Shown here: piece after piece, positions 9,595 to 34,066 of the stretch | How the letters are laid out: each line of letters opens with the position of its first letter | Position numbering within the stretch: the stretch's first letter is position 1 | Assembly (NCBI GenBank): GCA_026388095.1 | Contig: JAPLKL010000051.1 | Span: forward strand, 73,713-137,712 | Origin: Elusimicrobiota bacterium | GTDB lineage: Bacteria; Elusimicrobiota; Elusimicrobia; UBA1565; UBA9628 | Reading direction: 5' to 3' | DNA: 64,000 nt | Notes under the pieces: model-generated | Told to the model about the DNA's origin: nothing | The model's database searches: none | Seen by the model: only the letters and a program-made list of their open reading frames with translations | Translations under genes and position numbers: made by a program

Positions 9595-9826
9595 ATACTG
9601 GAACAAATTCCGCGGCTGGGCCCGACACTTCGGGGCCATCCGGGCCGAGGAGCCGCAAGCCTTCAGTTGGTGACGGGGATATTCTCGGACTGGTTCCTCA
9701 TGGACCGCAAGCTGACCCTGGTCAAAGGCCAGGTCGTGTCCCTGAGCGGGCAGGCCCAGCGGTACCCGCTCACCGAGGATTGGGACGCCGTCGCGCCCGA
9801 GGCCATCGGCTTCTGATTATGGTACA

Positions 9827-9845
9827 ATGTTCAATATTCGAACAT
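9827..9845. promoter_or_regulatory. palindromic operator candidate ATGTTCAATATTCGAACAT next to TGGTACAAT extended -10
   Basis: 6-bp arms ATGTTC/GAACAT, AT-rich in a 65% GC background, 10 nt upstream of the wHTH regulator start; the motif recurs at 34031 and 28692. Confidence 0.4.
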
Positions 9846-9854
9846 AGTTCCCAA

Positions 9855-10415
9855 ATGCCCACCCACGACGACACCCTGGCGGAAAAAGAATTCCTCCTCA
9901 TCCAGGAATTATCCCGCAAGCCCAACAGCACCCAGCGCGACCTCTCCCAGAACCTGGGGCTCTCCTTGGGAACGACGAACCTCCTCATCCGCAGGCTGGC
10001 GCGCAAGGGCATCATCAAGGTCACCCAGCTCGACTGGAAGCGCACCCAGTACCTGCTGACCCTCAAGGGCGCGGTGGAGAAGATGCGCAAGGCCTACCAC
10101 TACACCCGCTACACCTTGCGCATCTTCCGCCAGATCCAGGATAACATCAACACGGTCCTCACCCGGGAACACCGCGCCGGCCGCAGGGATTTCGTCCTCG
10201 TGGCCCGCGACGAGATATTGGAGCTCGTCCGAGAGACGGCGGCGGACCTGTCCCTGGCCGACGCGACCTTCACTTTCGTGCCCGCCTTCGACGAGGTCCC
10301 TGCGCGGGCGGACTTGGTCCTTACCGCGACCTTGGAGCCGGCTCCGAGACCCGTCAACGGCCGCCGCTACATGAGCCTGGTGGACTTCGACGACATAGAT
10401 TTCCGCATCCCTTGA
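9855..10415 (+). CDS. winged-HTH (MarR-like) transcriptional regulator
   Basis: N-terminal wHTH EKEFLLIQELSRKPNSTQRDLSQNLGLSLGTTNLLIRRLARKGII. Confidence 0.55.
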   Translation: MPTHDDTLAEKEFLLIQELSRKPNSTQRDLSQNLGLSLGTTNLLIRRLARKGIIKVTQLDWKRTQYLLTLKGAVEKMRKAYHYTRYTLRIFRQIQDNINTVLTREHRAGRRDFVLVARDEILELVRETAADLSLADATFTFVPAFDEVPARADLVLTATLEPAPRPVNGRRYMSLVDFDDIDFRIP

Positions 10416-10419
10416 CCCC

Positions 10420-11406
10420 ATGAAACGCAGACCTCGCACCCTCGCCGTGGCCACGGAGATCCGCCGCGTCATCGCCTTGGAGGCGCAGGCCCTCAAGGCT
10501 TTGCACGCCTCGGTGGACGGCTCCTACCAGAAGGCCGTGGAGCTCATGGCCCGCTGCCGCGGCAAGGTCATCCTCACGGGCGTGGGCAAATCCGGACTCA
10601 TCGCCCAGAAAGTGGCCGCGACGCTGGCCTCCACCGGAACCCCGGCCATCAACCTCGACCCGGCCGAGGCCAAGCACGGGGGCATCGGCCTCATCCAGCG
10701 CCAGGACCTGGTTTTGGCCATCGGCAAGTCCGGCGAGTCCGACGAGCTCAACGACCTGCTGCCCCGCCTGCGCGCCATCGGCACCAAGCTCATCGCCATC
10801 ACGGCCGAGCCGCGCTCGACCTTGGCGCGCGCCGCGACCGTGGTCCTGATCACGCCCATAGCCCAGGAGGCCTGCCCCCTCAACCTCACCCCGACCTGCA
10901 GCACCACGGCCGCCTTGGCCGTGGGCGACGCTCTGGCCGTGGCGCTCATGAAGCAGCGCAACTTCCAAGCCGAGCAGTTCGCGCGCAACCACCCGGCCGG
11001 CCAGTTGGGCAAGCGCCTGACCTTGACCGTGGCCGACGTCATGCGCTCGGGCAGGAGCAACCCCACCATCGGGGAAGACGCCAGCGTCAGCCGCATGCTC
11101 GTCGAGCTCACCCGCCAGCACGCCGGGGCGGTCTCGGTCGTGGACCGCAAGGGCCGGCTCAAGGGTCTGATCACGGACCGCGACATCCGGCGGGTGCTGG
11201 AGCTCGGACGCAACATCCAGGGGCTCTCGATCGCGCAGATCATGAACCCGAAGCCTACCAGCATCCGCCCCGAGGCCATGGCCTCGCGCGCGGTCGAGAT
11301 CATGGAACTGCGCAAGCGGCCCTTCAACGTCCTGCCCGTGGTGGACGGCCGCGGCCGCAGCGTGGGCATGATCCAGATCCACGACCTGCGCGCGCGCGGG
11401 CTCTAG
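10420..11406 (+). CDS. KpsF/GutQ-family arabinose-5-phosphate isomerase (SIS + tandem CBS)
   Basis: SIS motif VILTGVGKSG, C-terminal CBS pair. Confidence 0.85.
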   Translation: MKRRPRTLAVATEIRRVIALEAQALKALHASVDGSYQKAVELMARCRGKVILTGVGKSGLIAQKVAATLASTGTPAINLDPAEAKHGGIGLIQRQDLVLAIGKSGESDELNDLLPRLRAIGTKLIAITAEPRSTLARAATVVLITPIAQEACPLNLTPTCSTTAALAVGDALAVALMKQRNFQAEQFARNHPAGQLGKRLTLTVADVMRSGRSNPTIGEDASVSRMLVELTRQHAGAVSVVDRKGRLKGLITDRDIRRVLELGRNIQGLSIAQIMNPKPTSIRPEAMASRAVEIMELRKRPFNVLPVVDGRGRSVGMIQIHDLRARGL

Positions 11407-11457
11407 GGCCTGGCCCTGCGCCTCTATGGCGATACCTTTCCCAGCGGGAGACAGAGC

Positions 11458-12339
11458 ATGAAGGGGATCATACTGGCCGGCGGAGCGGGCACTCGGCTCT
11501 ACCCATGCACCAAGGTCGTGAGCAAGCAGATGATGCCGGTCTACGACAAGCCCATGATCTACTATCCGCTCAGCGTCCTGATGCTGGCCGGCATCCGCGA
11601 GGCGCTGATCATCAGCACGCCTCACGATCTGCCCTTCTTCCGCGAGCTCCTGGGAGACGGGACGCGCCTCGGGATGCGCTTCGCCTACGCCGAGCAGCCT
11701 CGCCCCGAGGGCCTGGCCCAGGCCTTCCTCATCGGCAAGGACTTCCTGGCCGGAGAGCCGGCCGGCCTGATCCTGGGCGACAACATCCTTTACGGCCATG
11801 GCATGACCGAGATGCTGCAGAAGGCGGCGCAGACCAGCCACGGCGGCCTCATCTTCGCGTATCAGGTGAAAGACCCGGAACGCTATGGCGTCGTGGAGTT
11901 CGACGCCCACGGCAAAGCCATCTCGCTGGCCGAAAAGCCCAAACGGCCCAAGAGCCACTACGCGGTCCCCGGCCTGTATTTCTACGGGCCCGAGGTTTGC
12001 GCCGAGGCGGCCAAGCTCAAGCCCAGCCCCCGCAACGAGTTGGAGATCACCGATCTCAACACCGCCTTCCTAAAGCGCGGGGAACTGCAGGTCCTGAAGA
12101 TGGGCCGGGGCATCGCCTGGCTCGATACCGGGACGCACCAGAGCCTCATGGACGCGGCGAGCTTCGTCCAGACGGTCCAGGACCGCCAAGGGCTCATGGT
12201 GGCCTGCCTTGAAGAGATCGCCTTGATGGCCGGCTGGATCGGGCTGGATGAGGTCAAGGCCGAGGCGGAAAGGATGGGCAAGAGCCCCTACTCCAGCTAT
12301 CTGCGGCATCTGCTGGCGCCAGACAGCGAAATTCAGTGA
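11458..12339 (+). CDS. rmlA: glucose-1-phosphate thymidylyltransferase
   Basis: [36 protein letters not shown] signature motifs. Confidence 0.9.
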
Positions 12340-13529
12340 TCGGACAAGGGCTGACCGCGGCTCTGACGGTCCTGGCCTTCATCCTGCCGATCTCCATCGC
12401 GGGGACCAACATGGCCCTGTTCCTCATCGGACTGCTCCTATTGGCGGGCATCGCGAGCAGAACTCCTCTGGAATGGCGCCGCGCCTGCGTCCCGGCTTTC
12501 TGGTGTCTCTGCATCTACTGCGCCGTGGCCGTGGTGACGTCCTTGACGGGAGTCTTGTCGAAGAACAGCCTGCACGATCTTCACAAGGATCTTCACAAGT
12601 TCGGCGTCTTTCTCGGCCTCCTGGTCGCCTTGCGCGCGGCCCCCGCGCGCCGCTTGCCGGGCGCGCTGGCTTTGGGCTTCACTTTCATAGCCGGCTTCGG
12701 GATCGCGCAGTTCTGCCTGGACGCCCACCGGGCGCTCCAGGCCTACGGCACGCTCAGCGCCGGGATCCGAGCTCACGCCTTCGTGCATCCCGTGACGTAT
12801 GGGGAGATCCTGGCGCTGGGGCTGTTGGGAGCGCTCTCGGCGGTGGGCGCGACCGGGAGCACGCAGACGCAGCGCCGGCCGGCTCTCGCTTTCCTGGCCC
12901 TGGGAGCGGCGGCTTTGATCCTGAACCAGACCCGCGGCGCTTTGCTGGGCGTGGCGGCCGGCTTCGCCGCCTTATGCGCGGCCGAGCCGTCCTTCCGGCG
13001 CTGGCTCAAGTGGGGCGTCGCGGCCGCGGTGCTGGGAGCCATCCTGATGGAGCTTCTTCCCACCGGCAGGTCTCTCATGGCTTCTGTGGCGCATCACGGG
13101 ACCGCGGTCGGCGGGAACCCTCAGCTCCATCGCTTCATCTTGTGGGACGTGGCTTGGCGCATCTTCAAAGACCATCCTTGGCTGGGGGTGGGCCCCGCCA
13201 ATTACGCCACCGTGTTCGCCGAATACCACCAGGGGATGTTCGAAGGTCAGAGCGTCTGGGGCTCCGCGCACAATCTCTTCCTGCATCAGTCGGCGGAACG
13301 GGGGCTCCTGGGGCTGGCGGCCTTGGCCGCCTTGTGGACCGCTTTTCTGGCCGGGGCTTGGAAGCGGGCCCGCGCTTTGCCCGATGCCTGGAACCTGTGG
13401 GCCTTGGCCGCCACGGCCGCGTTCTTCGTCATGAACTTCACCGAGACCGCGTTCCAGATCGAGCAGGTCACGACCCTCTTCCTCCTCATCTGGGCGCGCG
13501 CGGAAGCCCGACACCATGCCCAGACCTGA
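12336..13529 (+). CDS. Wzy_C-domain membrane protein (O-antigen ligase/polymerase family)
   Basis: polytopic; [18 protein letters not shown] Wzy_C motif; GTGA start/stop overlap. Confidence 0.7.
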
Positions 13530-14742
13530 GCCGCTGGTCCTGGCCCGCTGGGCGATGCGGTTCTGCCTCTGCTGTTTCTGCTTTCTGGTCACCTGGACCA
13601 TCGCGGGCGCCAACGTGGCCTGGGGCGTCCTCTTGGCGAGCCTCGTCGCCTTCGCCGCTCTCGGCGGGACCGTGGCCCTGGGAGCGCACCGCAGCGCCAT
13701 CGAGATACCCCTCTGGGTCTTCCTGGGAGCCGCCATCCTCGCCTGCGCCCTGGGGGTGGACCCGGCGCACAGCTTCCGGTCCATCAACAAGGACGTCCAT
13801 AAAGTCTTCATCTACACTTTGTTCTCCATCGCGCTGGCCACGGAATTGGCGCCGCAGGGCCTGGCCTGCATGGCGGCGGGCTTCGCCGTGGCCGGCGGCG
13901 TCGGGATCCGCCAGGGGATAGGCTATCTCGCGACGCACCAGTACTGGTACCGGGCCCACGCTTTGGTCCACCCGGTGACCTTCGGCGAGCAGATGGCCGT
14001 GGCCACGCTCGGCGCGGTCTCCTTTCTGGCCCTGCCTGAAGGCATCCTGAAGACGTCCTGGCAGCGCTGGCTGGCCCGCCTGGTGCTGGTCGTGACCGCG
14101 GCGGCCCTGGTCTTAAGCGAGACCCGCGCCGCTCTGCTCGGGCTCCTGGCGGGCCTGGCGGTGATCTCATTCTTCATCCGCCGCCTGCGCCTGCCCCTGG
14201 GCCTGGCCCTCCTTGTCGTGGCGCTGGCCATGCCGTTCATGGAACGTGCTCGCTACGGCCGCGCCCTGATGACGGACGTGCTGCTGGCTCAGCACCAGGG
14301 GACTATCCAGGCCGGCGGCCAATTGGAGCGCCTGCTGCTCTGGCGCGTGGCCTGGTCCATGGGCAAGGACCACTTCTGGACCGGAGTCGGGATCGGGAAC
14401 TTCCGCGCCATGCTGCCGCATTATCTCAGCGCCAAGTTCTCGGATGGGACGAACAGCTGGGGCACGGCCCACAACCTCTATCTGCACACCTTCGCGGAGA
14501 GAGGCGTTCTCGGGCTCTGCGCGCTCGTCTGGCTGCTGGGGGCGCTCTGGCTGCGCGCCTGGCAGCGAACGCGCCAGGAGGCGAGCCCCTGGAACCTTTG
14601 GGCCCTGGGCACGGCCACGGCTTTTCTGGTCATGAACATGACCGAAGAGGCCCTGCAGGTCGAGATCGTCTGGATGCTCGTCTTCTTCGTCTGGGTCTGG
14701 GCTGAGGCGCGCCACCGTCAAAGGGAAGGCTCATGGTCCTGA
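13516..14742 (+). CDS. Wzy_C-domain membrane protein, paralog of the previous
   Basis: GTAHNLYLHTFAERGVLG; tandem paralog. Confidence 0.7.
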   Translation: MPRPEPLVLARWAMRFCLCCFCFLVTWTIAGANVAWGVLLASLVAFAALGGTVALGAHRSAIEIPLWVFLGAAILACALGVDPAHSFRSINKDVHKVFIYTLFSIALATELAPQGLACMAAGFAVAGGVGIRQGIGYLATHQYWYRAHALVHPVTFGEQMAVATLGAVSFLALPEGILKTSWQRWLARLVLVVTAAALVLSETRAALLGLLAGLAVISFFIRRLRLPLGLALLVVALAMPFMERARYGRALMTDVLLAQHQGTIQAGGQLERLLLWRVAWSMGKDHFWTGVGIGNFRAMLPHYLSAKFSDGTNSWGTAHNLYLHTFAERGVLGLCALVWLLGALWLRAWQRTRQEASPWNLWALGTATAFLVMNMTEEALQVEIVWMLVFFVWVWAEARHRQREGSWS

Positions 14743-16007
14743 AGGGCGAAGCGAGCGTGACCCGCCGCCTGCGGCGCAATTCCTTCTGGAAGATTGTGGG
14801 CGACGGAAGCCGCGGCCTTCTGGCGGTGTTCCTGCTCCTGGTCGCGCGCCACTACGGGCCGGCCGCATTCGGCGTGTTCTCCTTGCTCTATGCCGCCGCC
14901 ATCTTCTTCTCCCTCCTGGCCGATCTCGGCCTCAATCTCCTGACCACCCGGCAGATCGCGGCCCACAAGTCGGATCCCGGGGCGTATCTGCAGACCTTTT
15001 TCACCTGCAAGCTCATCATCCTTCCCCTCTGGGTCATCCTGCCGGTCCTCGTCTGCAGACTGTGCCCCTATCCGGGGATATCCATCTCCTTGGTCGCGCT
15101 CTTGGCGGCGTCGTTCGCCATGCGCAATCTCCTGGAATTCTTCGGCGCAATATTCAGCGGCTTCGAGCAGATCCAATATGAAGCCGTCCTGAAGCTGGCC
15201 GCGCACACGCTCTTGCTCGGCCTCGGCATCTGGTTCATGTCCCGAGACCTCTCCATCACCTGGATCGGCGCCGCCATGCTGGGCGGCTACCTTGCGGCCG
15301 CGGTCTGCGGCGCCGTCTGGTGCCAAAGCAAATGGCGGATCCTCCCGCTGGTTTTCCACACCGAGGGACTTGCCATATTGTATGCCGAGGCTCTGCCGCT
15401 GATCTTGATGGGGGCTGGCCTGGCGGCGCTGACCAAATGGAACACGCTGATGCTCGGCTTCTTCGGCGTGGCGGCGGCGCAGATCGGCTGGTTCAGCGCC
15501 TCGGAGAAGGTCATCGCGGCTTTGGAGGTGCTGCCCATGCTGGTCACCGCGGCCAGCTACCCGGTGCTCTCCGACCTGCACAAGAACGACCCCGCCGGCT
15601 TCGCATCCGCCAAGGCCCGCCTGCTCAAGACGTTCCTCGGCATCGGCCTGCTGGCGGGGGCGGCCATCACGCTGTCAAGCGGGCCGATGATCCGCATCCT
15701 CTACGGCGCATCTTACGCCGGCGCCCGCCCGGCATTGTGCCTTCTGGCCTTCGGGCTGACGGCGGCGTTCCCGAACTGCATGCTGCTCAATATCCTGGTG
15801 GCTTCCGGCCGCTCCGCGGACGGCGCGCGCGCCGCCTTGATCGCCTGCGGCGCGAACATCCTGCTGACTTTGGTGCTGATCCCGGCCTGGGGCATCAACG
15901 GCTCGGCCTTGGCCTCGACCTTGGCGCAGGTGGTCCTGTTCGCCGCGGGCTATGCCTTCGCGGCCAAAGCCCGGACCCGGCCCGCCGCGGTGGGCACCCC
16001 CGCATAA
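14733..16007 (+). CDS. wzx: Wzx-type oligosaccharide flippase (polysaccharide biosynthesis protein family)
   Basis: ~12 TM MOP/MATE-like topology, N-terminal RRLRRNSFWKIVGDG. Confidence 0.7.
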   Translation: MVLKGEASVTRRLRRNSFWKIVGDGSRGLLAVFLLLVARHYGPAAFGVFSLLYAAAIFFSLLADLGLNLLTTRQIAAHKSDPGAYLQTFFTCKLIILPLWVILPVLVCRLCPYPGISISLVALLAASFAMRNLLEFFGAIFSGFEQIQYEAVLKLAAHTLLLGLGIWFMSRDLSITWIGAAMLGGYLAAAVCGAVWCQSKWRILPLVFHTEGLAILYAEALPLILMGAGLAALTKWNTLMLGFFGVAAAQIGWFSASEKVIAALEVLPMLVTAASYPVLSDLHKNDPAGFASAKARLLKTFLGIGLLAGAAITLSSGPMIRILYGASYAGARPALCLLAFGLTAAFPNCMLLNILVASGRSADGARAALIACGANILLTLVLIPAWGINGSALASTLAQVVLFAAGYAFAAKARTRPAAVGTPA

Positions 16008-16075
16008 CCCCGCGGTTCTCCAAGCCGGTTTTTCGCGGGACTCCGCATGGGACAGTTTGAAAGGCGATTTTATGC

Positions 16076-16109
16076 TATATTGATATTTGATTACTAATCG
16101 CTCAATATA
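16076..16109. promoter_or_regulatory. 8-bp perfect inverted repeat TATATTGA-N18-TCAATATA with TGcTATATT extended -10
   Basis: read directly in the AT-rich 110-bp spacer before the ATPase gene. Confidence 0.3.
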
Positions 16110-16121
16110 CAAGGTAGAGTC

Positions 16122-17273
16122 ATGCACATCAGACGAAGCGCTCTTCTACAGGATCTTCACCGCAGCGTGAAGGATCATCCGGTCACGGCCATTCTGGGGC
16201 CCCGCCAGTGCGGCAAGACCACGCTGGCTCGCGAATTGAACCGTCAGATCAAGGGGGCGTTCTTCGACCTCGAGAACCGTCAGGACCTAGCCCGCTTGCA
16301 GGACCCGATCCGTGTCTTGGGAGACCTCAGAGGCCTGATCATCTTGGACGAGGTCCAGAAGCAGCCTGGCCTCTTGGAGACCTTGCGGGTCTTGGCTGAC
16401 CGCCGGCCGCGGCGGGCGTCCTTCCTTATCCTCGGGAGCGCTTCGCCCGATCTTCTCCGGCATTCTTCGGAGTCCCTGGCCGGGCGGGTCCACTTCGTCG
16501 ACATGGGGGGATTCGACTTGGCCGAAGCGCCCCATATCGACCGGCTCTGGCTGCGGGGGGGCTTCCCGCCCTCCTACCTGGCCGCAAGCCTCGCCAAGAG
16601 CTTCGCTTGGCGGGAGGACTTCCTGCAGACTTTCCTGGAGCGCGATATCCCGCAGTGGGGCATCCGCGTGCCGGCTGCTACGCTCAGGCGCTTCTGGGGG
16701 ATGCTCGCCCACTACCACGGACAGACCTGGAACGCTTCCGAGATTGCATCCTCGTTGGGGACGGCCCATACCACCACGCAGCATTACCTCGAAATCCTGA
16801 CCGGCGCCTTCATGGTCAGGCAGTTGCCGCCTTGGCACGAGAACCTGGGCAAGCGACTGGTCAAAGCGCCCAAGGTGTATATCCGGGATTCGGGGCTCTT
16901 CCATTCACTCATGAGCCTCGAAACCAAGGAAAGTCTTTACGCTCACCCGAAATTCGGGGCATCCTGGGAAGGCTTTGCCCTGGAGCAGCTGGTCCGGCGA
17001 GTCCCTGACCGGCATGCCTATTTCTGGGGGACCCACGCCGGAGCGGAATTGGACCTGCTGCTCATCCGCGACGGTAAACGCTGGGGGTTTGAATTCAAAG
17101 TGAGCGAGGCGCCGAGCCTCACGAAATCGATGCGCATCTCCTTGAAGGATCTGAACCTCCAGCGTCTCTGGGCGGTCTATCCTGGGGCACACCGGTTTCC
17201 GATGGCTGATCGTATCGAGGCGATCCCTCTAGCTCAGGCCCTGCAGCTAGACGTGGTGAAGATGAATCATTAG
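16122..17273 (+). CDS. AAA-family ATPase with DUF4143-type C-terminal domain
   Basis: Walker A GPRQCGKTT, Walker B IILDEVQ; inserted inside the glycan operon after an AT-rich spacer. Confidence 0.75.
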   Translation: MHIRRSALLQDLHRSVKDHPVTAILGPRQCGKTTLARELNRQIKGAFFDLENRQDLARLQDPIRVLGDLRGLIILDEVQKQPGLLETLRVLADRRPRRASFLILGSASPDLLRHSSESLAGRVHFVDMGGFDLAEAPHIDRLWLRGGFPPSYLAASLAKSFAWREDFLQTFLERDIPQWGIRVPAATLRRFWGMLAHYHGQTWNASEIASSLGTAHTTTQHYLEILTGAFMVRQLPPWHENLGKRLVKAPKVYIRDSGLFHSLMSLETKESLYAHPKFGASWEGFALEQLVRRVPDRHAYFWGTHAGAELDLLLIRDGKRWGFEFKVSEAPSLTKSMRISLKDLNLQRLWAVYPGAHRFPMADRIEAIPLAQALQLDVVKMNH

Positions 17274-18067: not shown

Positions 18068-18119
18068 TAAGGCCTTTCCATAGGATGTGAGCCTTGGGAG
18101 CCATCAAGAGTTAAGCGCC

Positions 18120-24542: not shown

Positions 24543-25393
24543 GCCGCGGGAGGGCCTCCCGGCGCGGTCTTGCGCAGACAGGCGAGATAGTCGCTATGGC
24601 GCACCAGAGCGGTCCCCGCTCCGGTGAGGAAGCAGAACAAAGGGTAAAGGGCTCGCCCTGCCATGCTTATAGCCTTGCGCAGGACCTTGCGCGGCGCGGA
24701 ATCGTGGTTCCACCGGCTGAGCAGGATATCATACTCGTGGCCGGCGCTGTCGCAAAGCAGGTCCGGCAGGCGCCAAGAGCGGGAGCAATAGCGGGCCCAC
24801 GCCATCTCGAATCCCCAGCGTCCAGCCAGGCGCGCCAGGAGCAGAGGGTCGATCCAGCAGGTATGCTCCGGGTTCACCAAGAAGGAGCGCTTCCAGGCTA
24901 CGTAATGGAATTCGCCCGCGAAGAAGGGGTTGGGGGTGGAGATGAGCAGGATGCCGCCGTCCGCCAGAAGGCGGTGGCAGTTAGCGAAGAAAGCTTCCAA
25001 GTTCCCCAGGTGCTCGACGAGGTCCCCGGCCACGACGACGTCGAAGACCTCCGTGATGGGGAGGGGGCGGGTGACGTCCCCGCAGATCATGTCATAGCCT
25101 TGCGCCCGCAGTTTCTCCACTTCACCGGCCAGATAGTCCACTCCCAGGACGCGCGCGGCCACGTCGCGGATCCGCCGGTGCAGCCAGAGAGGGTCCGAGA
25201 CTGAGCAGCTCGCGTCGTGGCGCACGCAGCCCAGATCCAGGACTCGGCGCCCGCGGCAGAGCTGGGCGATGGCGTCCTCCCTATCAACGGGCCGGCTGCG
25301 GCGCATAGCCTGGGAGAAGGCGAAGCGGTCCTTGCAGGGAAGAGCCTCGGCCGGTCCGTCGCCACGGCCCAAGTCGACGCTCTCCTTACCCAT
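24539..25393 (-). CDS. class I SAM-dependent methyltransferase (alternative start 25426)
   Basis: VLDLGC motif I, VVAGDLVEH; the long listed ORF overlaps the epimerase gene in another frame, so an internal ATGGGTAA start/stop overlap was chosen. Confidence 0.6.
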   Translation of the reverse strand: MGKESVDLGRGDGPAEALPCKDRFAFSQAMRRSRPVDREDAIAQLCRGRRVLDLGCVRHDASCSVSDPLWLHRRIRDVAARVLGVDYLAGEVEKLRAQGYDMICGDVTRPLPITEVFDVVVAGDLVEHLGNLEAFFANCHRLLADGGILLISTPNPFFAGEFHYVAWKRSFLVNPEHTCWIDPLLLARLAGRWGFEMAWARYCSRSWRLPDLLCDSAGHEYDILLSRWNHDSAPRKVLRKAISMAGRALYPLFCFLTGAGTALVRHSDYLACLRKTAPGGPPAA

Positions 25394-26417
25394 GGCGTGC
25401 TGCCGCGGGCTTAGCCGAGAAACCATAGCGCTCGGCATGGGCTCTGTAGTGCTTGACGGTCCGGGCGATGCCTTCCTCGATGGGGACCAGGGGTTCCCAG
25501 GAGAGCTCCCGGCGTATCTTGCCGATGTTGGTGACGTAGTCGCCTGTCTCGACGAAATAACGGTCCTTCGGCCACGGAACGAACTGAACTTCCCCCTGCC
25601 CGACCGCGCGGACCACCAGTTCGGCCATGTCCTTGAAGGCGAGCCCTTTCCCCGAGCCGAGGTTGAAGACGTCGAAATGGATGTCCTTGGCTGCCGCGCC
25701 CACGAGCATGGCCCTGGCCAAGTCCTCCACGTAGATATAGTCCCTTTGCTGAAGGCCTTCACCGTAGACGGTGAGGGGTCGGCCTTCCAGGGCCAGACGG
25801 ATGAACCAGTTGAGTATCCCGTATTTGCCGTGCTTCATCTGCTGGCGGGGGCCGTAAGGATTGGCTATCCGGAAGATGACGGCGTCTAGGCCATGTGCCC
25901 GCTGATAGAAATGATAGTACTTTTCTCCGTTGAGCTTATGCACCCCGTAGATGCTCAGGCAGTTGTACGGGTGGTTCTCGTCGACGGGATTGTACTCGAT
26001 GTCTCCATAGACGAAGCGTGAGCTGGGAAAGATCAGTCGCGCCTTGGGGTTGTGCAGGCGGCAGGCTTCGAGCACCGTAAGATGCCCCCGGCAATTGACG
26101 TCCAGATCATAAAAGGGATCGACGTTGCTGTCGACATAGCTCACCTGGGCGGCCAGATTGAAGATGATGTCCTTGCCCTTGACTGCCTCGGACATCAGGG
26201 GCAGTTCGCGGATATCCCCATATACGAGGCGCACACGATCCTGGATGCCCTCCAGGTTGAAAGGGTTCGCCCCGAACAGGGGGGACATGGTATCGAGGAT
26301 CGTCACCTGCGCGCCGGCCTCCACCGCATAGTGCGCGATCGTGCTGCCTATCATCCCGGTCCCGCCGGTGATGAGGATGTTGGCTCCCGCCAAGGCGCGT
26401 AAGTCATTTTTGGGCAT
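25386..26417 (-). CDS. NAD-dependent epimerase/dehydratase (UDP-sugar 4-epimerase/decarboxylase-like)
   Basis: ILITGGTGMIG, YGVHK. Confidence 0.8.
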   Translation of the reverse strand: MPKNDLRALAGANILITGGTGMIGSTIAHYAVEAGAQVTILDTMSPLFGANPFNLEGIQDRVRLVYGDIRELPLMSEAVKGKDIIFNLAAQVSYVDSNVDPFYDLDVNCRGHLTVLEACRLHNPKARLIFPSSRFVYGDIEYNPVDENHPYNCLSIYGVHKLNGEKYYHFYQRAHGLDAVIFRIANPYGPRQQMKHGKYGILNWFIRLALEGRPLTVYGEGLQQRDYIYVEDLARAMLVGAAAKDIHFDVFNLGSGKGLAFKDMAELVVRAVGQGEVQFVPWPKDRYFVETGDYVTNIGKIRRELSWEPLVPIEEGIARTVKHYRAHAERYGFSAKPAAARHG

Positions 26418-27690
26418 GAGTCCCTCCGATTCCCGGCTCTTCCGTCAGGACTGCTTGGTACAATTCCTGATAACGTCGGGCGGCGAACTCGGCCCGGAAA
26501 TGCTGCTCGAAACGCTCTTTCCCCGCTCGTCCCATGGCTTGGCTGCGGTCGGGGGATGAGAGCAAAGACGCGATGGCGGACGCCAGGCTCTGAGGATCTC
26601 CGGGCGGCACCAGCAGGCCGGTTCGTCCGTCCTCGACCTCCTCGACGATGCCTGCCACGGCCGACGCGACTACCGGTTTGCCCATTGCCATGGCATCCAG
26701 GACGATCAAGGGCATGTCTTCATGGCTGAGCGACGGCAGGACGAGCAGGTCGGCGGCATTGAGGATATGATCGGCGTCGTTCCGATACCCCAGGAATAGG
26801 AAATTGGCGCTCAAGCCGCACCTACGCGCCAGGGATTCGATGGCGCCCCGTTCCGGACCGTCCCCAATGAGGATGAGGCGCCACTCCGGCGGGAGCCTCC
26901 CGGCCTTTGCCAAGAGGTCGGCGGCCTCCACCAAGACGCGATGGCCCTTGCGCGGCTCGAAGAAGGCGGTCATGACCAGGACTGTCTGTCCGGGCGAGAG
27001 TCCAAGTTCCCGGCGGACCTCGGCGGTGGGTCTAAGCCCCTCCGGCCGGCGGATGCCGTTGGAAATGGTCAGGGTTCGGTCGGCCGGGAAGCCTCGGTGC
27101 ACGAGTGCCTGCTTGGCAGCTTGCGAGGCCGTGACAAAGCGGCGGCAGGAACGCATGATGAGCCGGTCGACCCAGAGTTCCGGCCATTCCCAAGGCAGCC
27201 GCAAGGGGCGGGTGATGTTGTTGACCGTGAGGACGACGGCAGGGACGCGGGCCCAGGCGGCGGCGATAGCAGCCGCTCGGCAGCTCAGCGCCCCGGGGTA
27301 TCCCCCGTTGTTGATGTGTACGAGGCGAGGCTTGCCGCGCGCGAACAGCTGGTAAAGCCGGAGGGTCTCCCAAGAGAGCAGAGGCCAATCGAGAAGACGG
27401 TAAAGGAGCTTGAAAAAAAGCCGGGCCGGCGCGAGAGGGAACGCTCGGTTCGCCGCCGCGAACCAGGCATCCCGATCCGGGAAGCGCACCGGCGTTTTGG
27501 CGAGGGGGACGCGCAACCGCCGCGCCAAGCCGCAGTCGAAGCGCTGGCTGCTGCGATAGATCAGCCGGCAATCAAATTCCTCCCGCAGATGCCCCTCTTG
27601 CAGGAAGTCGACCAGGAAGATATCGGCGCCCCCGAAGACCTGGCAGTCAGTGTAGAGCCAGAGCGTCGGTTTGACGGCGCGGTCAGGCAT
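26404..27690 (-). CDS. GT4 glycosyltransferase
   Basis: EPRKG, LILIGDGPER, C-terminal EDMPLIVLDAMAMGKPVVAS. Confidence 0.8.
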   Translation of the reverse strand: MPDRAVKPTLWLYTDCQVFGGADIFLVDFLQEGHLREEFDCRLIYRSSQRFDCGLARRLRVPLAKTPVRFPDRDAWFAAANRAFPLAPARLFFKLLYRLLDWPLLSWETLRLYQLFARGKPRLVHINNGGYPGALSCRAAAIAAAWARVPAVVLTVNNITRPLRLPWEWPELWVDRLIMRSCRRFVTASQAAKQALVHRGFPADRTLTISNGIRRPEGLRPTAEVRRELGLSPGQTVLVMTAFFEPRKGHRVLVEAADLLAKAGRLPPEWRLILIGDGPERGAIESLARRCGLSANFLFLGYRNDADHILNAADLLVLPSLSHEDMPLIVLDAMAMGKPVVASAVAGIVEEVEDGRTGLLVPPGDPQSLASAIASLLSSPDRSQAMGRAGKERFEQHFRAEFAARRYQELYQAVLTEEPGIGGTHAQK

Positions 27691-27726
27691 CGCTTCCCCT
27701 GCTTTCGTAGGCGAAGTTGAGCGGGC

Positions 27727-28635
27727 TCATGTCTTCACGCTCATGGATGCTCGCATCTGCCGCAGGCCATCATCGACGGCGAGCGGGGCAACCCCAAGCT
27801 CGCGTTCCATGCGCTGTGTCACAAAAGCCGTGTTCGGCGGCCGGGGCGCGATGTCCGGGAAAAAAGAGCTGTCCACCGGTCTAATGAGCGAGGCGTCGAG
27901 GCTGAAAGCCTTTGCGATCTTCCGGGCGAAATCGTAGCGGCTCACTGTGTCCTTGCCGGCCAGATGGAAGATGCCTCCCGGCCGATTGTTTATCACGGCC
28001 CAGAGGGCCCGGCCACACTGCCGGTTGTACAGCGGGTTCTCGTAGACATCGGTCACGATATGCACCGCTTCCCCGCGCATGAGCTTGTCGAATATCCAGG
28101 TCACGGTGTTGGGCCGGCTCACGATATGGTTCCAGCCGTACATGAGGATGGGGCGCACGATGCAGTAGTCGGTCAGGGTCTCGCGGACCAAGCGCTCGCA
28201 TTCGACCTTGAGCAGGCCGTACTTGTTGACCGGGGAGACGGGGTCGGACTCCTTGTATGGAGGATTCTTGCCGTCGAAGACCGCGTTGGTGGAGACGTAA
28301 GCCAGATAGGTCCCGGATTTACGGCAGGCCGAAGTCACGTTGAGGGTGCCGACGATGTTGGATTCGAGGCTCTCCGCGTAGTGCTTCTCCACATAATCCA
28401 CGCTGGCGATGCCGGCCGCGTGGATGACCGCGTCGAAACAGTGCTTGACGAAGAGCCGGTCCACGGCGCGCTTGTCGCGGATGTCGAGTACCAGGCACTT
28501 TGCGTGCGAGTCCTTGACCTCGTAGGCGCGCTGGTGCAGGCTCAGGATCCGCCACCCCGCAGGCATGGTTTCCTCCATGCCTTTGCCCAGGAGTCCGGTA
28601 CCCCCGGTGATAAGGATAGTCTTCTTTTGGCTCAT
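27727..28635 (-). CDS. RmlD-like sugar-nucleotide reductase (SDR)
   Basis: ILITGGTGLLG, VNKYGLLK YxxxK, ~300 aa. Confidence 0.6.
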   Translation of the reverse strand: MSQKKTILITGGTGLLGKGMEETMPAGWRILSLHQRAYEVKDSHAKCLVLDIRDKRAVDRLFVKHCFDAVIHAAGIASVDYVEKHYAESLESNIVGTLNVTSACRKSGTYLAYVSTNAVFDGKNPPYKESDPVSPVNKYGLLKVECERLVRETLTDYCIVRPILMYGWNHIVSRPNTVTWIFDKLMRGEAVHIVTDVYENPLYNRQCGRALWAVINNRPGGIFHLAGKDTVSRYDFARKIAKAFSLDASLIRPVDSSFFPDIAPRPPNTAFVTQRMERELGVAPLAVDDGLRQMRASMSVKT

Positions 28636-28805
28636 GGGTTTGCGGCCGCGCCATAGGGGCACGGCCCCCTAAATATGATGTTTAAGTATTGAACAAGATA
28701 CAAGTTCTTGGTCCAAAAGTGTGACGTTTCGCAGCGATTCAAAATTCCCGCCACCAGAATGAAAGAAATTGCCTTTAAGGAAGGTCAGAATCATATAATA
28801 TCCGC

Positions 28806-29876
28806 ATGTTGAACGATTATCCTCGCAGCAAGAAGCACGGCTTGACCAAACCCATCTCGCTCTCCCCCGGCGATTTTGCCTGCCTGCGCGGCCGCACCGT
28901 CCTAGTCACCGGAGGCACCGGCTCTTTCGGGAAGCGGTTCGTGGAGACCGCGCTCCGGCATAGCCGCTTGCGCAAGCTCATCGTCTTTAGCCGCGATGAG
29001 CTCAAGCAGTCCGAGATGGCGGCCCGCTTCACGGACAAACGGCTGCGCTTCTTCATAGGGGACGTCAGGGACCTCCAGCGCCTGCAGCGCGCCTTCCACG
29101 GCGTGGATTTCGTGGTGCATGCCGCAGCCCTCAAGCAGGTCCCCACCCTGGAATATAATCCGTTTGAAGCGGTTCTCACCAACATCGTGGGGTCTGAAAA
29201 CATCATCAACGCGGCCATCGACCAGAAAGTGCGCCGGGTCGTTGCCCTATCCACCGACAAAGCGGCTAACCCCGTCAACCTCTACGGCGCCACCAAGCTC
29301 TGCTCCGAGAAGCTCTTCATATCCGGCAACTCCTATGCCGGATCCACGGGGACCCTCTTTTCAGTGGTCCGCTACGGCAACGTGGTGGGCAGCCGCGGCA
29401 GCGTCGTCCCGCTGTTTCTCTCGCTGCGCCGGCAAGGAGTCCTGCCCGTCACGGACGCGCGCATGACCCGCTTCTGGATCACGCTGGACCAAGGGATACA
29501 CCTCGTGCTCCGGGCGCTGGCCCGCATGCATGGCGGCGAGGTCTTCGTGCCGAAGATCCCCAGCATGCGCATCATGGACCTCGCCAAGGCCATCGCCCCG
29601 GAGTGCCGTACGCGCGTGGTCGGAGTGCGCCCCGGCGAGAAGATCCACGAGATACTGATTACCGAAGACGAGGCCGCCCGCTCCCTTGACCTGGGTGACA
29701 TATTCGTGGTAAAACCCAACTTCCATTGGTGGGGTCCGGACAACTGGCGGGAAGGCACTGCCGTGCCGGCGGGCTTCCGCTACACCAGCGACGCCAACGA
29801 CCGATGGCTGACCCCGCCGGAGATCCGCGCCCTGACCCTCCCTGCGGATGGGGACCGCGAACCCGCCCCCGCATAA
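28806..29876 (+). CDS. pseB: UDP-N-acetylglucosamine 4,6-dehydratase (inverting; PseB/FlaA1/CapD soluble type)
   Basis: VLVTGGTGSFGK, STDKAANPVNLYGATK, ~350 aa soluble. Confidence 0.75.
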   Translation: MLNDYPRSKKHGLTKPISLSPGDFACLRGRTVLVTGGTGSFGKRFVETALRHSRLRKLIVFSRDELKQSEMAARFTDKRLRFFIGDVRDLQRLQRAFHGVDFVVHAAALKQVPTLEYNPFEAVLTNIVGSENIINAAIDQKVRRVVALSTDKAANPVNLYGATKLCSEKLFISGNSYAGSTGTLFSVVRYGNVVGSRGSVVPLFLSLRRQGVLPVTDARMTRFWITLDQGIHLVLRALARMHGGEVFVPKIPSMRIMDLAKAIAPECRTRVVGVRPGEKIHEILITEDEAARSLDLGDIFVVKPNFHWWGPDNWREGTAVPAGFRYTSDANDRWLTPPEIRALTLPADGDREPAPA

Positions 29877-29928: not shown

Positions 29929-31152
29929 TCAAGATCCAGGGGCATCGGCTGCCTTTTCCAATACTTTTCGACTATCTCCAAGTATGAATCCTAGTAATAC
30001 ATAAAACGCGATCCCGAAGGGAAGGTATCTTATGGATTCATTGAACAGACCATAGGCGAGGGTCGCTATCAAGCCTATCGCGATAATCGTGCGCATTCTT
30101 CCGGAGATTGTGAGAGGATCCGATTTCGCGGCTACATAAAATGGCGCGAAGATCTGGAATGCGAATAGCAGCAACCCGACAAACCCTCTGCGAACAAAAA
30201 CATCAAAATACTCGCTATGTGCAGACATGTTGGCGTATGTCACTCCGTCGACAATGAGCGGTCTCATGGTGTGGCCGATGCCGACCTCACCCTGTCCGAA
30301 TATTGGGACCAACCAGTCGTTCTTGGACATGGCATAGATTTCATTGTAGATGGCCAACCTTACATTGGCCGAATGGTCTCGGCGAATCCCAGCTTGGTCT
30401 CCGCGGATTGCAGAACTGACTATTCCTGTCACTCTTCCCGGATTAATAACAAATAACCCGCAATATTTCGCCATTGATAAAAAAAGCCCGCCAATCAAAT
30501 AAAAAGATAGGACCTGCAAACGTATTTTTTTACTCTTTTCGAAATATAGTAATAAAACAAGAAATACCATTAAACAGAGATATGCCGAGCGCGTCGTGGA
30601 GAGGATGAGAAGACAAATCGATATCAGCCCAAGAGCGTTCGCTGCCAATACGCGCGCTCGGCTCTGCCGCGGCTCCATAAAACAAATAGCGATGACGGCC
30701 GTGGCGAATATGAGCAATGAATTTCGCTGGGTTATTGCCACTCTTATGTTATCGTGGAATACTTCCGATACTCCCCGCAGCTCCGAGAACATGTAGAGCC
30801 ATGAGCCCATGAAGAAGCCATTCATGAAGAATATGGAGGTTTCCTGATTCTCCGAAGATGCGCGGCCGATAAAGTATGAAACCAGGAAAAAGAGCGTCAC
30901 GGCTACAGAGACGACGCGATCGTGGGTAAAGCCGGAACCCAGAATCTCGTGGATGATGGCATTCAACAAGCAATAGCCGAAATACACAATGATCACATAG
31001 TCGAATCTATTTAGTTTCAACCGAAGCCGGGATAAGAGGAAAACCAACAGAATGGGATAAAAAACAACCGGAAGCACCGGAAAATACGAATTCTGGAACC
31101 CAATGTATATTGGGATCAGTGGGATAAGGCCAGAAATGAACGCTGAAATCAA
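29929..31152 (-). CDS. Wzy-type O-unit polymerase (low-GC)
   Basis: ~10-12 TM, SAHSEYFDVFVRRGFVGL Wzy_C motif, AT-rich codon usage atypical for the locus. Confidence 0.6.
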   Translation of the reverse strand: MISAFISGLIPLIPIYIGFQNSYFPVLPVVFYPILLVFLLSRLRLKLNRFDYVIIVYFGYCLLNAIIHEILGSGFTHDRVVSVAVTLFFLVSYFIGRASSENQETSIFFMNGFFMGSWLYMFSELRGVSEVFHDNIRVAITQRNSLLIFATAVIAICFMEPRQSRARVLAANALGLISICLLILSTTRSAYLCLMVFLVLLLYFEKSKKIRLQVLSFYLIGGLFLSMAKYCGLFVINPGRVTGIVSSAIRGDQAGIRRDHSANVRLAIYNEIYAMSKNDWLVPIFGQGEVGIGHTMRPLIVDGVTYANMSAHSEYFDVFVRRGFVGLLLFAFQIFAPFYVAAKSDPLTISGRMRTIIAIGLIATLAYGLFNESIRYLPFGIAFYVLLGFILGDSRKVLEKAADAPGS

Positions 31153-31207
31153 TGGCAGGATACTTGTGCTCGACTCTTGGAGCAGAATGTTTTACAGGGC
31201 AATGGGT

Positions 31208-32029
31208 TCAAAACACCGAAAGCGGTCTTGGACTAGTAGCTATGTTCTCAAGCTTGACTCTATCAACGATCTCGGTATTCTCGCGGAAGTTCGGCTCCAT
31301 GCCAGTCAGGTCCCTGTAGGTCATGGAATCCATCGTTTCACTGCCGCCATCCAACGTAACAGTGACAAGATCGATGTTCCGCTTGGCATAATTTATGAAC
31401 TCCCGGCAAAAGTATTTGTTTCTGTCATCAATGGCACCCACCCCTTTTTCATAAAAATGCCCCCCTTTTGACGGGGAATGGGTGTAGTCCTGGCCCACAA
31501 GATAGGCCTTCTTGAACCCCAGATAGATCGCCAAAGAGATCTGGAATGTGAATGAGCCCCGATGCGAGTCTTCACGATCCCTGAATGGGTTCTTCTCTTC
31601 AAAGGGAGGCTTATAGAAACGGCTGACGAAAATGGCGTTCGAAAAGCGAGCCACTGGATAATTTGAAAAATTAATGAAAAAAGTCTTTCTAGGATTCTGA
31701 ATGATGAACTTGCGATATTCGATGGGAAGAATATGCCTGACGATCCGCCGCTTACCGTCTTCCATCCGATAGGGGCAGACCGGCCAAAACCAGAAAGGCT
31801 CGACGAGGGCGCAATACGGGGAATTAAGCGCACTGATCTCCTTATGATAGATCACAAAACTCCCCACGATCGAGGGCCGATCGGCGAACTGGCGCAGATC
31901 CATCCACTTCAAAGAAACGCCATCGCCAAAAATATAGCACTCCTGCCCCGCATGCCTCTGATAAAGCCCATCAAGTTTGGAGAGCTGCCCATGCATGACG
32001 CGAGTGAGCAGTTTCTTAAATAAGTCCAT
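31208..32029 (-). CDS. GT42/Cst-like (sialyltransferase-like, possibly Maf/DUF115-like) nonulosonate transferase candidate
   Basis: CYIFGDGVSLK resembles Cst-II IIAGNGPSLK; LVGQDYTH resembles LSGIDFYQ; low GC. Confidence 0.45.
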   Translation of the reverse strand: MDLFKKLLTRVMHGQLSKLDGLYQRHAGQECYIFGDGVSLKWMDLRQFADRPSIVGSFVIYHKEISALNSPYCALVEPFWFWPVCPYRMEDGKRRIVRHILPIEYRKFIIQNPRKTFFINFSNYPVARFSNAIFVSRFYKPPFEEKNPFRDREDSHRGSFTFQISLAIYLGFKKAYLVGQDYTHSPSKGGHFYEKGVGAIDDRNKYFCREFINYAKRNIDLVTVTLDGGSETMDSMTYRDLTGMEPNFRENTEIVDRVKLENIATSPRPLSVF

Positions 32030-32059
32030 CTATTTGTTTCCCTTAAGTTGGCCGGGGCA

Positions 32060-33877
32060 TCATGCTTCCGAACTCTTTAAGTCCTTGGCGCCGAATCCGC
32101 TCTTCAAGAAATGCTCATAAGAGCCTTGCGCGATGATCCGCCCACGCTCCAACTGGAAAATCGTATCGCAATTCTGCAGGGTGGAGAACCGGTGCGCGAT
32201 GATCAGGACAGTCAGGTCTTTGTTGAGATTCTCTATGGCATCAATCACCGCCTTCTCGGTGACGCTGTCCAGAGCGCTGGTGGCTTCGTCGAAAATCAGC
32301 ACGGTCGCCTGCTTGTACAGCGCCCTGGCGATGCCGATGCGCTGACGCTGCCCGCCGCTGAGGCGGATGCCGCGTTCGCCTACCAATGCGTCATATCCCC
32401 CGGGCCGGCCTTCGATGAATGCCGAGATCTGCGCTTGAGCGGCGGCATCCCTGACGCGAGCCTTATCCACTTCTTGCGGCGGCACGCCGAAGGCTATGTT
32501 CTCGGCGATGCTGGTGTCAGCCAGGAAGATGCTTTGCGGCACGTGGGCGATGGCGCTCTGCCAGGCCCGCCGGAGCTCTTCGCCTATCAGTTGCCCGTCT
32601 ACCAAAATCCTCCCCTGCGTAGGCTCAAGCAAGGACATCAGCAAGTCCAGAGCAGTGCTCTTGCCGCTGCCGGTGCTGCCGACAAAGCCGACCCGCGCTC
32701 CTTTGCGTATAGTCAGATTGATTCCGTCCAGCACCCAAGGGCCGTCTTCGCCATAACGGAAGCGCACATTATCGAAACTGATGGCTTCATGGAAGTCCAG
32801 CGGCGCAGGCGCCGGCAAATACGCGTCTTTCGGCAGCGGCTGATCGAGCAGATCAAGCACATCGCTCATTGAAGAATGGGCCCCGGCGACTGCAGACCAA
32901 TTGCCGTACAACTGCTGCAATAGCGGGAGCAGGCGCTGCGCCCCAAGCGCCATCGCCGCCATCACCGGCAGGGCTCCCCCCATCCCCCCCGGCCTGCGGC
33001 TCAAGACATAGGACAAGACAGATATCAGCACCATGCCCAAAGCTTCTATGGCGTAGCGGGGGAATTGATTCATGTAGACATTCTCGCCGGTGGCCCGCTG
33101 CAGCTGTTGGATGGCTTTCCGGTAGACATCACAGTAAACTGCCTGGGCGCCGTCCAGAAGCACATCACGAATAGCGCCAAGCCCTTCCTGCAATGCTTTG
33201 ACCACCTGCGTCTGTTCTTGCGCGATGCACCGGCTGTTGCGCGCCAGCCGGTGGCGTATCTGCCAGGCGATGACGCCATACCCCGCGCCGAACATGACGA
33301 CCGCCGCGGTAGCGATCAATGGGTCGATAGCGAACAATGTCAACAGGATTGCCGCGAACAGCACCCCTGAGGTGACTATGCTCACTAAAGACAGCAGCAC
33401 GGACGTAGCGGTCGCGACCTTCTGCGTGATCCCGCTGATGATCTCGCTGCTGTTGCGGGCCACATGCACGCGATAGGGTTGATAAAGCGTCCGCCGGTAG
33501 ACCTCGAGGCTGAGGTCCGCGCCGGTAGCGTTTGCCAGCCGGATACTCACCCATAACACCACCAGACGTAGTCCCGCGGCGAAGACAGCCGCCGCTGCGA
33601 ATGCCACGGTCAGCGGCAGCACCAAGTCCGCCGCAGCAGTGATTCCCAACGCCTTGGCGGCGCCAGAGATCACAGGGGAGTTGAACACTTTTTCCGGCTG
33701 AGTGAGGATGCCTATGAATGGCAGCACCGCCCCGAGACTGACGACCTCGGCGAATGCGTCGGCTAAAGTCAAACCCAGCATCAGCAGGAACTGCGACCGC
33801 CGGCGACTGCTGATGTGTTCAAAAAGACGGACTAGCAACCCGGGGAGGCTTGTCGTGGGGACTTGATAATCCATCAT
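32060..33877 (-). CDS. fused TMD-NBD ABC exporter (MsbA/PglK-like)
   Basis: six N-terminal TM helices; Walker A GSTGSGKST, signature LSGGQRQR, Walker B LIFDEATSALD. Confidence 0.85.
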   Translation of the reverse strand: MMDYQVPTTSLPGLLVRLFEHISSRRRSQFLLMLGLTLADAFAEVVSLGAVLPFIGILTQPEKVFNSPVISGAAKALGITAAADLVLPLTVAFAAAAVFAAGLRLVVLWVSIRLANATGADLSLEVYRRTLYQPYRVHVARNSSEIISGITQKVATATSVLLSLVSIVTSGVLFAAILLTLFAIDPLIATAAVVMFGAGYGVIAWQIRHRLARNSRCIAQEQTQVVKALQEGLGAIRDVLLDGAQAVYCDVYRKAIQQLQRATGENVYMNQFPRYAIEALGMVLISVLSYVLSRRPGGMGGALPVMAAMALGAQRLLPLLQQLYGNWSAVAGAHSSMSDVLDLLDQPLPKDAYLPAPAPLDFHEAISFDNVRFRYGEDGPWVLDGINLTIRKGARVGFVGSTGSGKSTALDLLMSLLEPTQGRILVDGQLIGEELRRAWQSAIAHVPQSIFLADTSIAENIAFGVPPQEVDKARVRDAAAQAQISAFIEGRPGGYDALVGERGIRLSGGQRQRIGIARALYKQATVLIFDEATSALDSVTEKAVIDAIENLNKDLTVLIIAHRFSTLQNCDTIFQLERGRIIAQGSYEHFLKSGFGAKDLKSSEA

Positions 33878-34030
33878 CAGCTGCTACGCGCTCACGGTCG
33901 TTCTGACCGCTGTGAGCAACCCATGTACACCGCTCAGGGGCTCCGGACGCAGGGATACGTTGATGGCCACGATCTTCAGCATACCAGGCGAAAGTCGATA
34001 GGTAGACAATGGTACCTTATTTGAGTAGAA

Positions 34031-34047
34031 TGTTCAATAAATGAACA
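34031..34047. promoter_or_regulatory. perfect palindrome TGTTCA-ATAAA-TGAACA in the divergent promoter region
   Basis: read directly; preceded by GGTAC and TAGAAT; same half-site as 9829 and 28692. Confidence 0.4.
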
Positions 34048-34066
34048 CAGGGGCGGCCCATCACCG

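Follow-up and report, generated by a model that had tools for sequence, protein, structure and literature searches.

A palindromic candidate operator fused to the −10 element accompanies a winged helix-turn-helix regulator gene in a surface-glycan locus of Elusimicrobiota

The gene content and promoter regions of a 64,000-nucleotide stretch of DNA from an Elusimicrobiota bacterium (GenBank assembly GCA_026388095.1, contig JAPLKL010000051.1, positions 73,713 to 137,712 of the forward strand; the window) were analysed. The region from about 9.8 to 48 kb is one large surface-glycan locus. It encodes KpsF-like, RmlA-like, Wzy-like and Wzx-like proteins, GT2 and GT4 glycosyltransferases and several epimerases and dehydratases, together with pseB-like and rmlD-like genes, an ATP-binding cassette (ABC) exporter, methyltransferases and three B12-binding radical S-adenosylmethionine (radical-SAM) proteins. 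A winged helix-turn-helix (wHTH) regulator of 186 residues is encoded at 9.9 kb, and a 17-bp palindrome was found directly upstream of its gene and in two further promoter regions of the locus (Table 1). The genes around these sites had been named in an earlier note on the same DNA as a wHTH regulator, rmlD-like and pseB-like genes, an ABC exporter and a hypothetical gene, and these assignments hold according to Pfam.

All three sites have the form TGTTC-N7-GAACA, with TGTTCA-N5-TGAACA as the fuller form. The string ATGTTCAATATTCGAACAT occupies positions 9827-9845, and the ATG of the wHTH gene at 9855 follows 9 nt further on; the 17-bp palindrome within this string is separated from the ATG by 10 nt only. 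The second site lies within the divergent intergenic region between the rmlD-like and pseB-like genes. The earlier note had placed ATGTTCAATATTCGAACAT and TGTTCAATAAATGAACA correctly. It had also listed TATTGAACA as a reverse-complement occurrence; this string lies at 28687-28695 and not at 28692-28700, and the full 17-bp palindrome to which it belongs, TGTTTAAGTATTGAACA with one arm mismatch, had been missed. The partial match TCAATATA at 16102-16109, upstream of a DUF4143 ATPase gene, does exist as a string, yet the best 17-mer of that intergenic region has four arm mismatches, which ruled it out as a fourth site. The pentamer GGTAC, proposed as a companion of the motif, was also ruled out as a motif part; at site 1 it contributes the TGn of the extended −10, and at site 3 it falls in the promoter spacer.

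The frequency of the palindrome was compared with expectation. When TGTTC-N7-GAACA was searched with at most one mismatch, five matches occurred in the whole window versus 0.81 expected, and two of the five (14622 and 40404) were GC-rich, coding and devoid of an AT-rich core. In the 6,284 nt of intergenic DNA, three sites were present versus 0.10 expected, and this number was reached in none of 2000 shuffles. Exact sites numbered two in the same intergenic DNA, versus 0.0045 expected. No site occurred in any other intergenic region of the window with at most one arm mismatch.

The palindrome begins, at each of the three sites, with a T that doubles as the last base of a plus-strand −10-like hexamer of the form TAnnnT. 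The hexamers are TACAAT at site 1, TATGAT at site 2 and TAGAAT at site 3, and each faces a plus-strand gene. This fusion was evaluated in a survey of 438 kb, which comprised the window and 25 loci selected by protein similarity and was searched by the palindrome arms alone. TAnnnT stood in the exact register at 34 of 41 palindromes, whereas the background was 1.3% per strand, and TGn was additionally present at 20 of these palindromes. Within the protein-selected set, only site 2 had hexamers fused to it on both strands. Moreover, a match of at least 5/6 to TTGACA at a distance of 16-18 nt was found at 20% of the Elusimicrobia sites versus 1% of the controls, and at 33% of the metagenome sites among the matches listed versus 2% of the controls. 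Hence, the fused hexamer behaves like a real −10 element, given its register and the enrichment of TGn and of the −35. The candidate operator would thus overlap the core promoter, span about −7 to +10 and enclose the transcription start. Starts are predicted near 9835, 28686 (plus strand), 28688 (minus strand) and 34038.

The association between the site and the regulator gene was explored across genomes. The 25 loci of the survey were obtained from Genome Taxonomy Database (GTDB) genomes by protein similarity alone, starting from an alignment of 22 orthologues with 63-81% identity. In 22 of the 23 Elusimicrobia loci, the palindrome was immediately 5′ of the orthologous regulator gene, with its upstream edge 19-83 nt before the onset of protein similarity. 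In the remaining locus (L021), it preceded a radical-SAM gene heading a two-gene operon with the regulator. The homologues from Planctomycetota (L024) and Binatia (L025), at 35-38% identity, were each accompanied by two degenerate sites. A search of all representative proteins for long-form relatives, i.e., relatives of the length class of the window protein, gave 2404 matches at E≤1e-3 and 885 at E≤1e-10. Seven distant relatives were chosen, five of which had DNA, and the palindrome was present in four of the five loci. Three of them (L149, L151 and L152) carried TTGAC[GA]-17-(TATTGT, TAGAAT or TATTAC) fused to the palindrome; the site of the fourth, in a deltaproteobacterial metagenome-assembled genome (MAG; L150), faced divergent SLBB/Wzz export genes, and the fifth locus (L153) had no palindrome. 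As a separate observation, two regulator paralogues are encoded in the MAG JACQWX01 (L022 and L023). They are 47% and 42% identical to the window protein, and a separate fused operator belongs to each, with two at L022.

A motif-only scan of metagenomes with the pattern TANAATGTTCAWNNNNTGAACA yielded at least 120 loci with at least 125 sites; the metagenome counts given here and below hold among the matches listed. The GC content of the contigs ranged from 21 to 70%. An open reading frame (ORF) of at least 60 residues followed within 300 nt at 93 of the 125 sites, and in 48 of these 93 the first such ORF was a homologue of the window regulator (E from 4e-5 to 3e-53). Many of the 120 loci are very short; a family member was encoded somewhere in 68 of the 120. 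The homologues fell into two size classes, namely, a short form of about 100-109 residues, which scored 127-133 bits against TIGR04176 as bona fide members, and a long form of about 175-207 residues, which scored 47-63 bits. The pairing of regulator and site therefore recurs over several bacterial phyla, and the palindrome in the promoter of the regulator gene itself is kept among orthologues. The earlier note had proposed control of several operons by a single regulator, plausibly the adjacent wHTH protein; this proposal is strongly supported by the comparison, in which the site stays with the regulator gene and extra sites precede glycan genes.

The promoters of the two forms differed in layout. 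A second palindrome was located 23 bp from the first in 18 of 24 short-form promoters versus 3 of 24 long-form promoters. In the short-form layout, the 17-nt spacer is occupied by the second palindrome, to which a −35 element (TTGAC or TTTAC) was fused; the −10 was fused to the first. In metagenome locus L133 and Elusimicrobia locus L022, back-to-back divergent promoters each carried their own fused operator. Furthermore, the predicted start codon of many family members lay inside the right arm of the palindrome (ATGAACA or TTGAACA, encoding Met-Asn) or a few nucleotides after it. This position, combined with the predicted transcription start, suggests leaderless or near-leaderless autoregulated mRNAs. 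At site 1, no Shine-Dalgarno sequence was seen between the palindrome and the ATG of the wHTH gene.

The regulator protein was characterized via profile and structure comparisons. A wHTH domain of the MarR/HTH_24 type was identified by Pfam, by an AlphaFold2 model and by Foldseek. In the model (predicted local distance difference test score, 84), the N-terminal wHTH covers residues about 4-68 and is followed by a long helix at residues 70-107 and a small C-terminal beta-alpha-beta-beta-beta domain at residues 112-174. Apart from the weak matches noted below, searches of Protein Data Bank (PDB) sequences and with Foldseek returned only wHTH proteins of the MarR family, e.g., FabT, PcaV, MepR and SlyA. 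The C-terminal domain of about 80 residues had no Pfam match and no significant fold match; the best hits (E=0.27) were fragments of Rossmann-like methyltransferases. No ligand site could be assigned to this domain, which may serve in oligomerization or in ligand sensing. A likeness to the N-terminal nucleotide-sugar domain of NeuD/PglD was considered and found no support. TIGR04176 was the best family match of the window protein at 55.2 bits (E=5.8e-15), below the curated cutoff of 88 bits. Judged from its sequence, the protein is a long-form relative of TIGR04176 (MarR_EPS) that stands outside the curated family. The segment SLGxxN...L..KG.IK is common to the long and short forms and is taken to be the recognition-helix region; its retention in both forms fits the invariant GTTCA half-site.

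According to these results, the 17-bp palindrome is proposed to be the operator of the adjacent wHTH protein, which would act as an autoregulated repressor occluding the −10 and start region; a probability of roughly 0.7 is assigned to this reading. A dimer would contact one GTTCA half-site with each recognition helix; the half-site centres are 11 bp, or one helical turn, apart. Because position −7 of the −10 hexamer would coincide with the first T of the operator, the bound protein would cover about −7 to +10 and block RNA polymerase. The protein would repress its own six-gene operon, which comprises the regulator gene, the kpsF-like, rmlA-like and wzx-like genes and two Wzy-like genes. It would also repress the pseB-like gene and the LIC12162-family gene downstream of site 3, and probably the divergent rmlD-like operon. 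The proposed targets would all serve surface-glycan functions.

Several observations weigh against autorepression as stated. No recognizable −35 was found at sites 1 and 2 by the promoter scan. The pattern of the metagenome scan held the −10 as well as both arms, and the metagenome sites are therefore a biased sample. Homologous loci of the LIC12162 family in other lineages (L146, L147 and L148) had no operator. The glycan-locus promoter regions at 16.0, 20.6, 38.9, 40.5-41.1 and 47.9 kb lacked the site; hence, the locus would be only partly under the proposed control. Finally, the constant −10 register is unusual in a repressor regulon and might reflect another action at the promoter.

Such an action could be an activating or dual role of the same wHTH protein at the same site, e.g., the recruitment or stabilization of RNA polymerase at extended −10 promoters without a −35, as at sites 1 and 2. 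A register fixed in 34 of 41 sites is indeed more typical of activators or MerR-like factors, for which the geometry must be exact, than of repressors. However, the site overlaps the −10 and lies 3′ of it, over the predicted start, where bound proteins normally occlude the polymerase. Many promoters of the family show the full TTGACA-17-TAnAAT consensus and should need no activator, and the second operator of the short form, filling the spacer between −35 and −10 in 18 of 24 promoters, is a classic repression layout. Activation is thus regarded as unlikely, but it is the alternative that fares best. That another protein binds the site, perhaps a global factor of LexA-like or other type that reads the GTTC/GAAC arms, with the wHTH gene as just one target, appears improbable. 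The arms do occur in several LexA boxes, and the pairing of the wHTH protein with the site comes from sequence comparison. Nevertheless, the site accompanies the wHTH gene in Elusimicrobia, Deltaproteobacteria, Planctomycetota, Binatia and low-GC marine contigs, for which autoregulation is the most economical reading. Neither lexA, recA nor any DNA-repair gene was found among the inspected downstream genes, most of the assignable ones being glycan genes.

The palindrome could also act in RNA, as a hairpin of the 5′ leader that controls stability, attenuation or translation, but this is very improbable. The 21-mers do fold into hairpins of 6-7 bp, with a z-score of −5.6 for site 1. The folding is weak, however, at −2.8 to −4.7 kcal/mol; the pairs G2/C16, T3/A15 and T4/A14 are invariant over 29 distinct sites with no compensatory change, and the inner pairs often fail. 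Moreover, the −10 ends on base 1, so the transcript should start inside the palindrome and lack its left arm. Both strands are used at divergent promoters, and no Rfam match was obtained. A chance likeness between AT-rich promoter regions, to which AT-rich islands in a GC-rich genome might give rise, is practically negligible given three intergenic sites versus 0.10 expected, none of 2000 shuffles reaching that number and conservation over dozens of loci. Repression by the adjacent wHTH protein therefore remains the preferred reading.

Table 1 Coordinates of the sites, promoter elements and genes discussed, in window positions unless locus identifiers are given (PWM, position weight matrix).
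Feature	Position	Strand	Remarks
Predicted extended −10 of regulator promoter	9820-9828	+	TGGTACAAT, TGn plus TACAAT (TGnTAnAAT type); last T is base 1 of operator 1
Candidate operator 1	9828-9844		TGTTCAATATTCGAACA; perfect 5-bp arms; PWM score 32.2
wHTH regulator, 186 residues	9855-10415	+	Pfam HTH_24 39.9 bits (cutoff 21.9), MarR 24.7 bits (cutoff 24.6)
KpsF-like SIS+CBS protein	10420-11406	+	Pfam; predicted regulator operon
RmlA-like nucleotidyltransferase	11458-12339	+	Pfam; predicted regulator operon
Two Wzy_C proteins	12336-13529, 13516-14742	+	Pfam; predicted regulator operon
Wzx-like flippase	14733-16007	+	Pfam; predicted regulator operon
Predicted operon	21652-28635	−	rmlD-like gene, then GT4 glycosyltransferase, epimerase, two methyltransferases, B12-radical-SAM protein (Pfam)
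rmlD-like gene	27727-28635	−	Pfam; first gene of predicted operon 21652-28635
−10-like hexamer TATGAT	28674-28679	+	Fused to operator 2, toward pseB-like gene
Candidate operator 2	28679-28695		TGTTTAAGTATTGAACA; one arm mismatch; PWM score 22.3 on − strand
−10-like hexamer TATCTT	28695-28700	−	Fused to opposite end of operator 2, toward rmlD-like operon
PseB/FlaA1-like UDP-sugar 4,6-dehydratase (Polysacc_synt_2)	28806-29876	+	Pfam E=6.6e-98; predicted target
ABC exporter	32060-33877	−	Pfam
Predicted sigma-70-type promoter TAGACA-17-TAGAAT	34003-34031	+	Promoter scan, 10/12 matches; last T of −10 is base 1 of operator 3
Candidate operator 3	34031-34047		TGTTCAATAAATGAACA; perfect 6-bp arms; PWM score 26.4
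PF27859 'LIC12162' family protein, 611 residues	34091-35926	+	Formerly 'hypothetical'; occurs in glycan loci; predicted target
Promoters of short-form TIGR04176 genes with two candidate operators	L027, L045, L048, L052, L053, L073, L090, L129, L133		Metagenome loci
Start codon in or near right arm	L051, L049, L052, L090, L102, L110, L133, L151, L152; window 9844-9855		

The extent of the predicted targets was examined from gene spacing and gene identity. Neighbouring genes of the regulator operon, through 16007, overlap by up to 14 nt or are separated by up to 51 nt, and the regulator is predicted to be co-transcribed with the five genes downstream (10420-16007). The extent of the minus-strand operon that begins with the rmlD-like gene was likewise estimated from gene spacing only, and this gene is a possible target via the minus-strand hexamer at operator 2. 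Extra sites at the Elusimicrobia protein-selected loci precede an orthologue of the window pseB-like gene (68% identity by BLASTP, with a fused site, in L009), which backs the pseB-like gene at site 2 as a conserved target. Other genes behind extra sites, with identities read off the sequence, encode DegT-type aminotransferases, a NeuB-like synthase, B12-radical-SAM proteins, an N-acetyl-sugar amidotransferase and an epimerase. In the metagenome set, Pfam was run on the 31 downstream ORFs that have 90 residues or more and encode no regulator homologue. The matches were mainly to glycan enzymes, namely, Polysacc_synt_2, Epimerase, NTP_transferase, GFO_IDH_MocA, GT2, CTP_transf_3, asparagine synthase-type amidotransferases, a CmcI methyltransferase and a polysaccharide deacetylase; one NusG paralogue was also matched.

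The target at site 3 depends on the window site, as the operator is missing from the three homologous LIC12162 loci mentioned above. The family name refers to a protein of the Leptospira rfb locus. The site-3 protein showed no homology to the proteins of about 590 residues encoded 3′ of sites in L009 and L010, and a relationship with them was discarded. In the NCBI annotation, the product of this gene has 492 residues (P0241), whereas the ORF from the ATG at 34091 has 611 and the homologues have about 590-620; the annotated start is probably mis-called. In L146, L147 and L148, the LIC12162-family homologues adjoin B12-binding radical-SAM genes.

The window system was compared with known regulators. 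TIGR04176, the 'MarR family EPS-associated transcriptional regulator' of about 100-105 residues, is the closest, and like the window protein it occurs in polysaccharide loci. Bona fide members are encoded directly 3′ of TGTTCA-N5-TGAACA fused to TAnAAT, as is the window protein. The window protein differs by its length of 186 residues, by its extra C-terminal alpha/beta domain where TIGR04176 has a single domain, and by its score (55.2 versus 88 bits); it shares the setting in a surface-glycan locus. The promoters differ as well, with two operators 23 bp apart being usual in the short form and one in the long form. Leptospira rfb loci begin with an uncharacterised 'MarR' (PMC9736851, PMC10958091). 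In a literature search, no published operator or functional study was found for TIGR04176 or for the TGTTCA/TGAACA operator.

Autoregulation in the MarR family usually operates through a palindrome of 16-20 bp that overlaps the promoter. The window protein shares the wHTH fold with canonical MarR repressors (FabT, 6jbx; PcaV, MepR, SlyA and AdcR), but the sequence similarity is weak and the full-length TM-scores against MarR structures are 0.34-0.42 only. Canonical members have about 140-150 residues and a wHTH flanked by N- and C-terminal dimerization helices, whereas in the window protein the wHTH is N-terminal, and a helix of 38 residues leads from it to a separate alpha/beta domain. This order is reminiscent of Rex and CggR, in which a wHTH precedes a Rossmann-type sensor, and CggR and wHTH-containing O-methyltransferases were among the weak Foldseek matches. 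However, the C-terminal domain of the window protein has only about four strands and one helix and no significant similarity to such sensors (best E=0.27), and the alignment revealed no nucleotide-binding glycine motif in the Elusimicrobia proteins. Several LexA SOS boxes have GTTC/GAAC arms, and the 17-bp sites of TnrA/GlnR read TGTNA-N7-TNACA. The likeness of the window sites to these is confined to half-site letters or to the TGT-N11-ACA geometry; it is a sequence resemblance between unrelated protein families, and the genes downstream of the palindromes are the wHTH regulator and glycan genes, not SOS or nitrogen genes.

The proposed mechanism would be ordinary MarR-type autoregulation. 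The assignment of regulator and operator appears solid and broadly conserved, and the rigid −10 fusion is its unusual feature. Tentatively, and with the odds somewhat against it, TAnnnT-TGTTCA-N5-TGAACA could be viewed as a promoter-operator cassette that is portable and belongs to an old regulator family spanning phyla, made up of TIGR04176 and its long-form relatives. If this were true, a repressor half-site would share the −7 T of the promoter, and a leaderless, autoregulated mRNA would often have its start codon within the right arm. The cassette would then be a general on/off switch moving with horizontally exchanged glycan loci, from marine bacterioplankton with 21% GC to Elusimicrobia with 70% GC, in which the long form might detect a pathway metabolite through its C-terminal domain. 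The family is abundant, with at least 8000 clusters at 90% identity for the short form, by source mostly from marine metagenomes, and 885 clusters at 50% identity for the long-form relatives at E≤1e-10. A concrete candidate operator and a first regulon are proposed for a family that heads surface-polysaccharide loci. The sites also point to where promoters and transcription starts probably lie in Elusimicrobia, a group whose promoters are essentially uncharacterised, and could help explain the switching of O-antigen, capsule and nonulosonic-acid loci. In synthetic biology, the small repressor and its compact operator, fused to the −10, would make a simple orthogonal part.

Further features of the locus were recorded. 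B12-binding radical-SAM genes lie at 18087-19595, 21652-23874 and 39010-40506, and at least five methyltransferase-domain genes are present in the same locus; this combination suggests heavily C- or O-methylated sugars. The segments 30001-32000 and 48001-49000 are islands of 47-48% GC in a contig of 60-70% GC. The first contains a Wzy-like gene and a gene for a 273-residue hypothetical protein without a Pfam match, the second contains a gene for 319 residues, and both look like horizontally acquired glycan genes. The DUF4143/AAA_14 ATPase gene (16008-17273) breaks the plus-strand glycan run between the Wzx-like and GT2 genes, is preceded by a spacer of 46% GC and may be an inserted or defence-type gene. 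Two divergent genes before the regulator, at 8081-8971 (minus strand) and 8989-9594 (plus strand), received no family assignment; the protein encoded at 8081-8971 gave a sub-threshold HTH_7 match only and has a cysteine-rich end, CCPDCGKSG.

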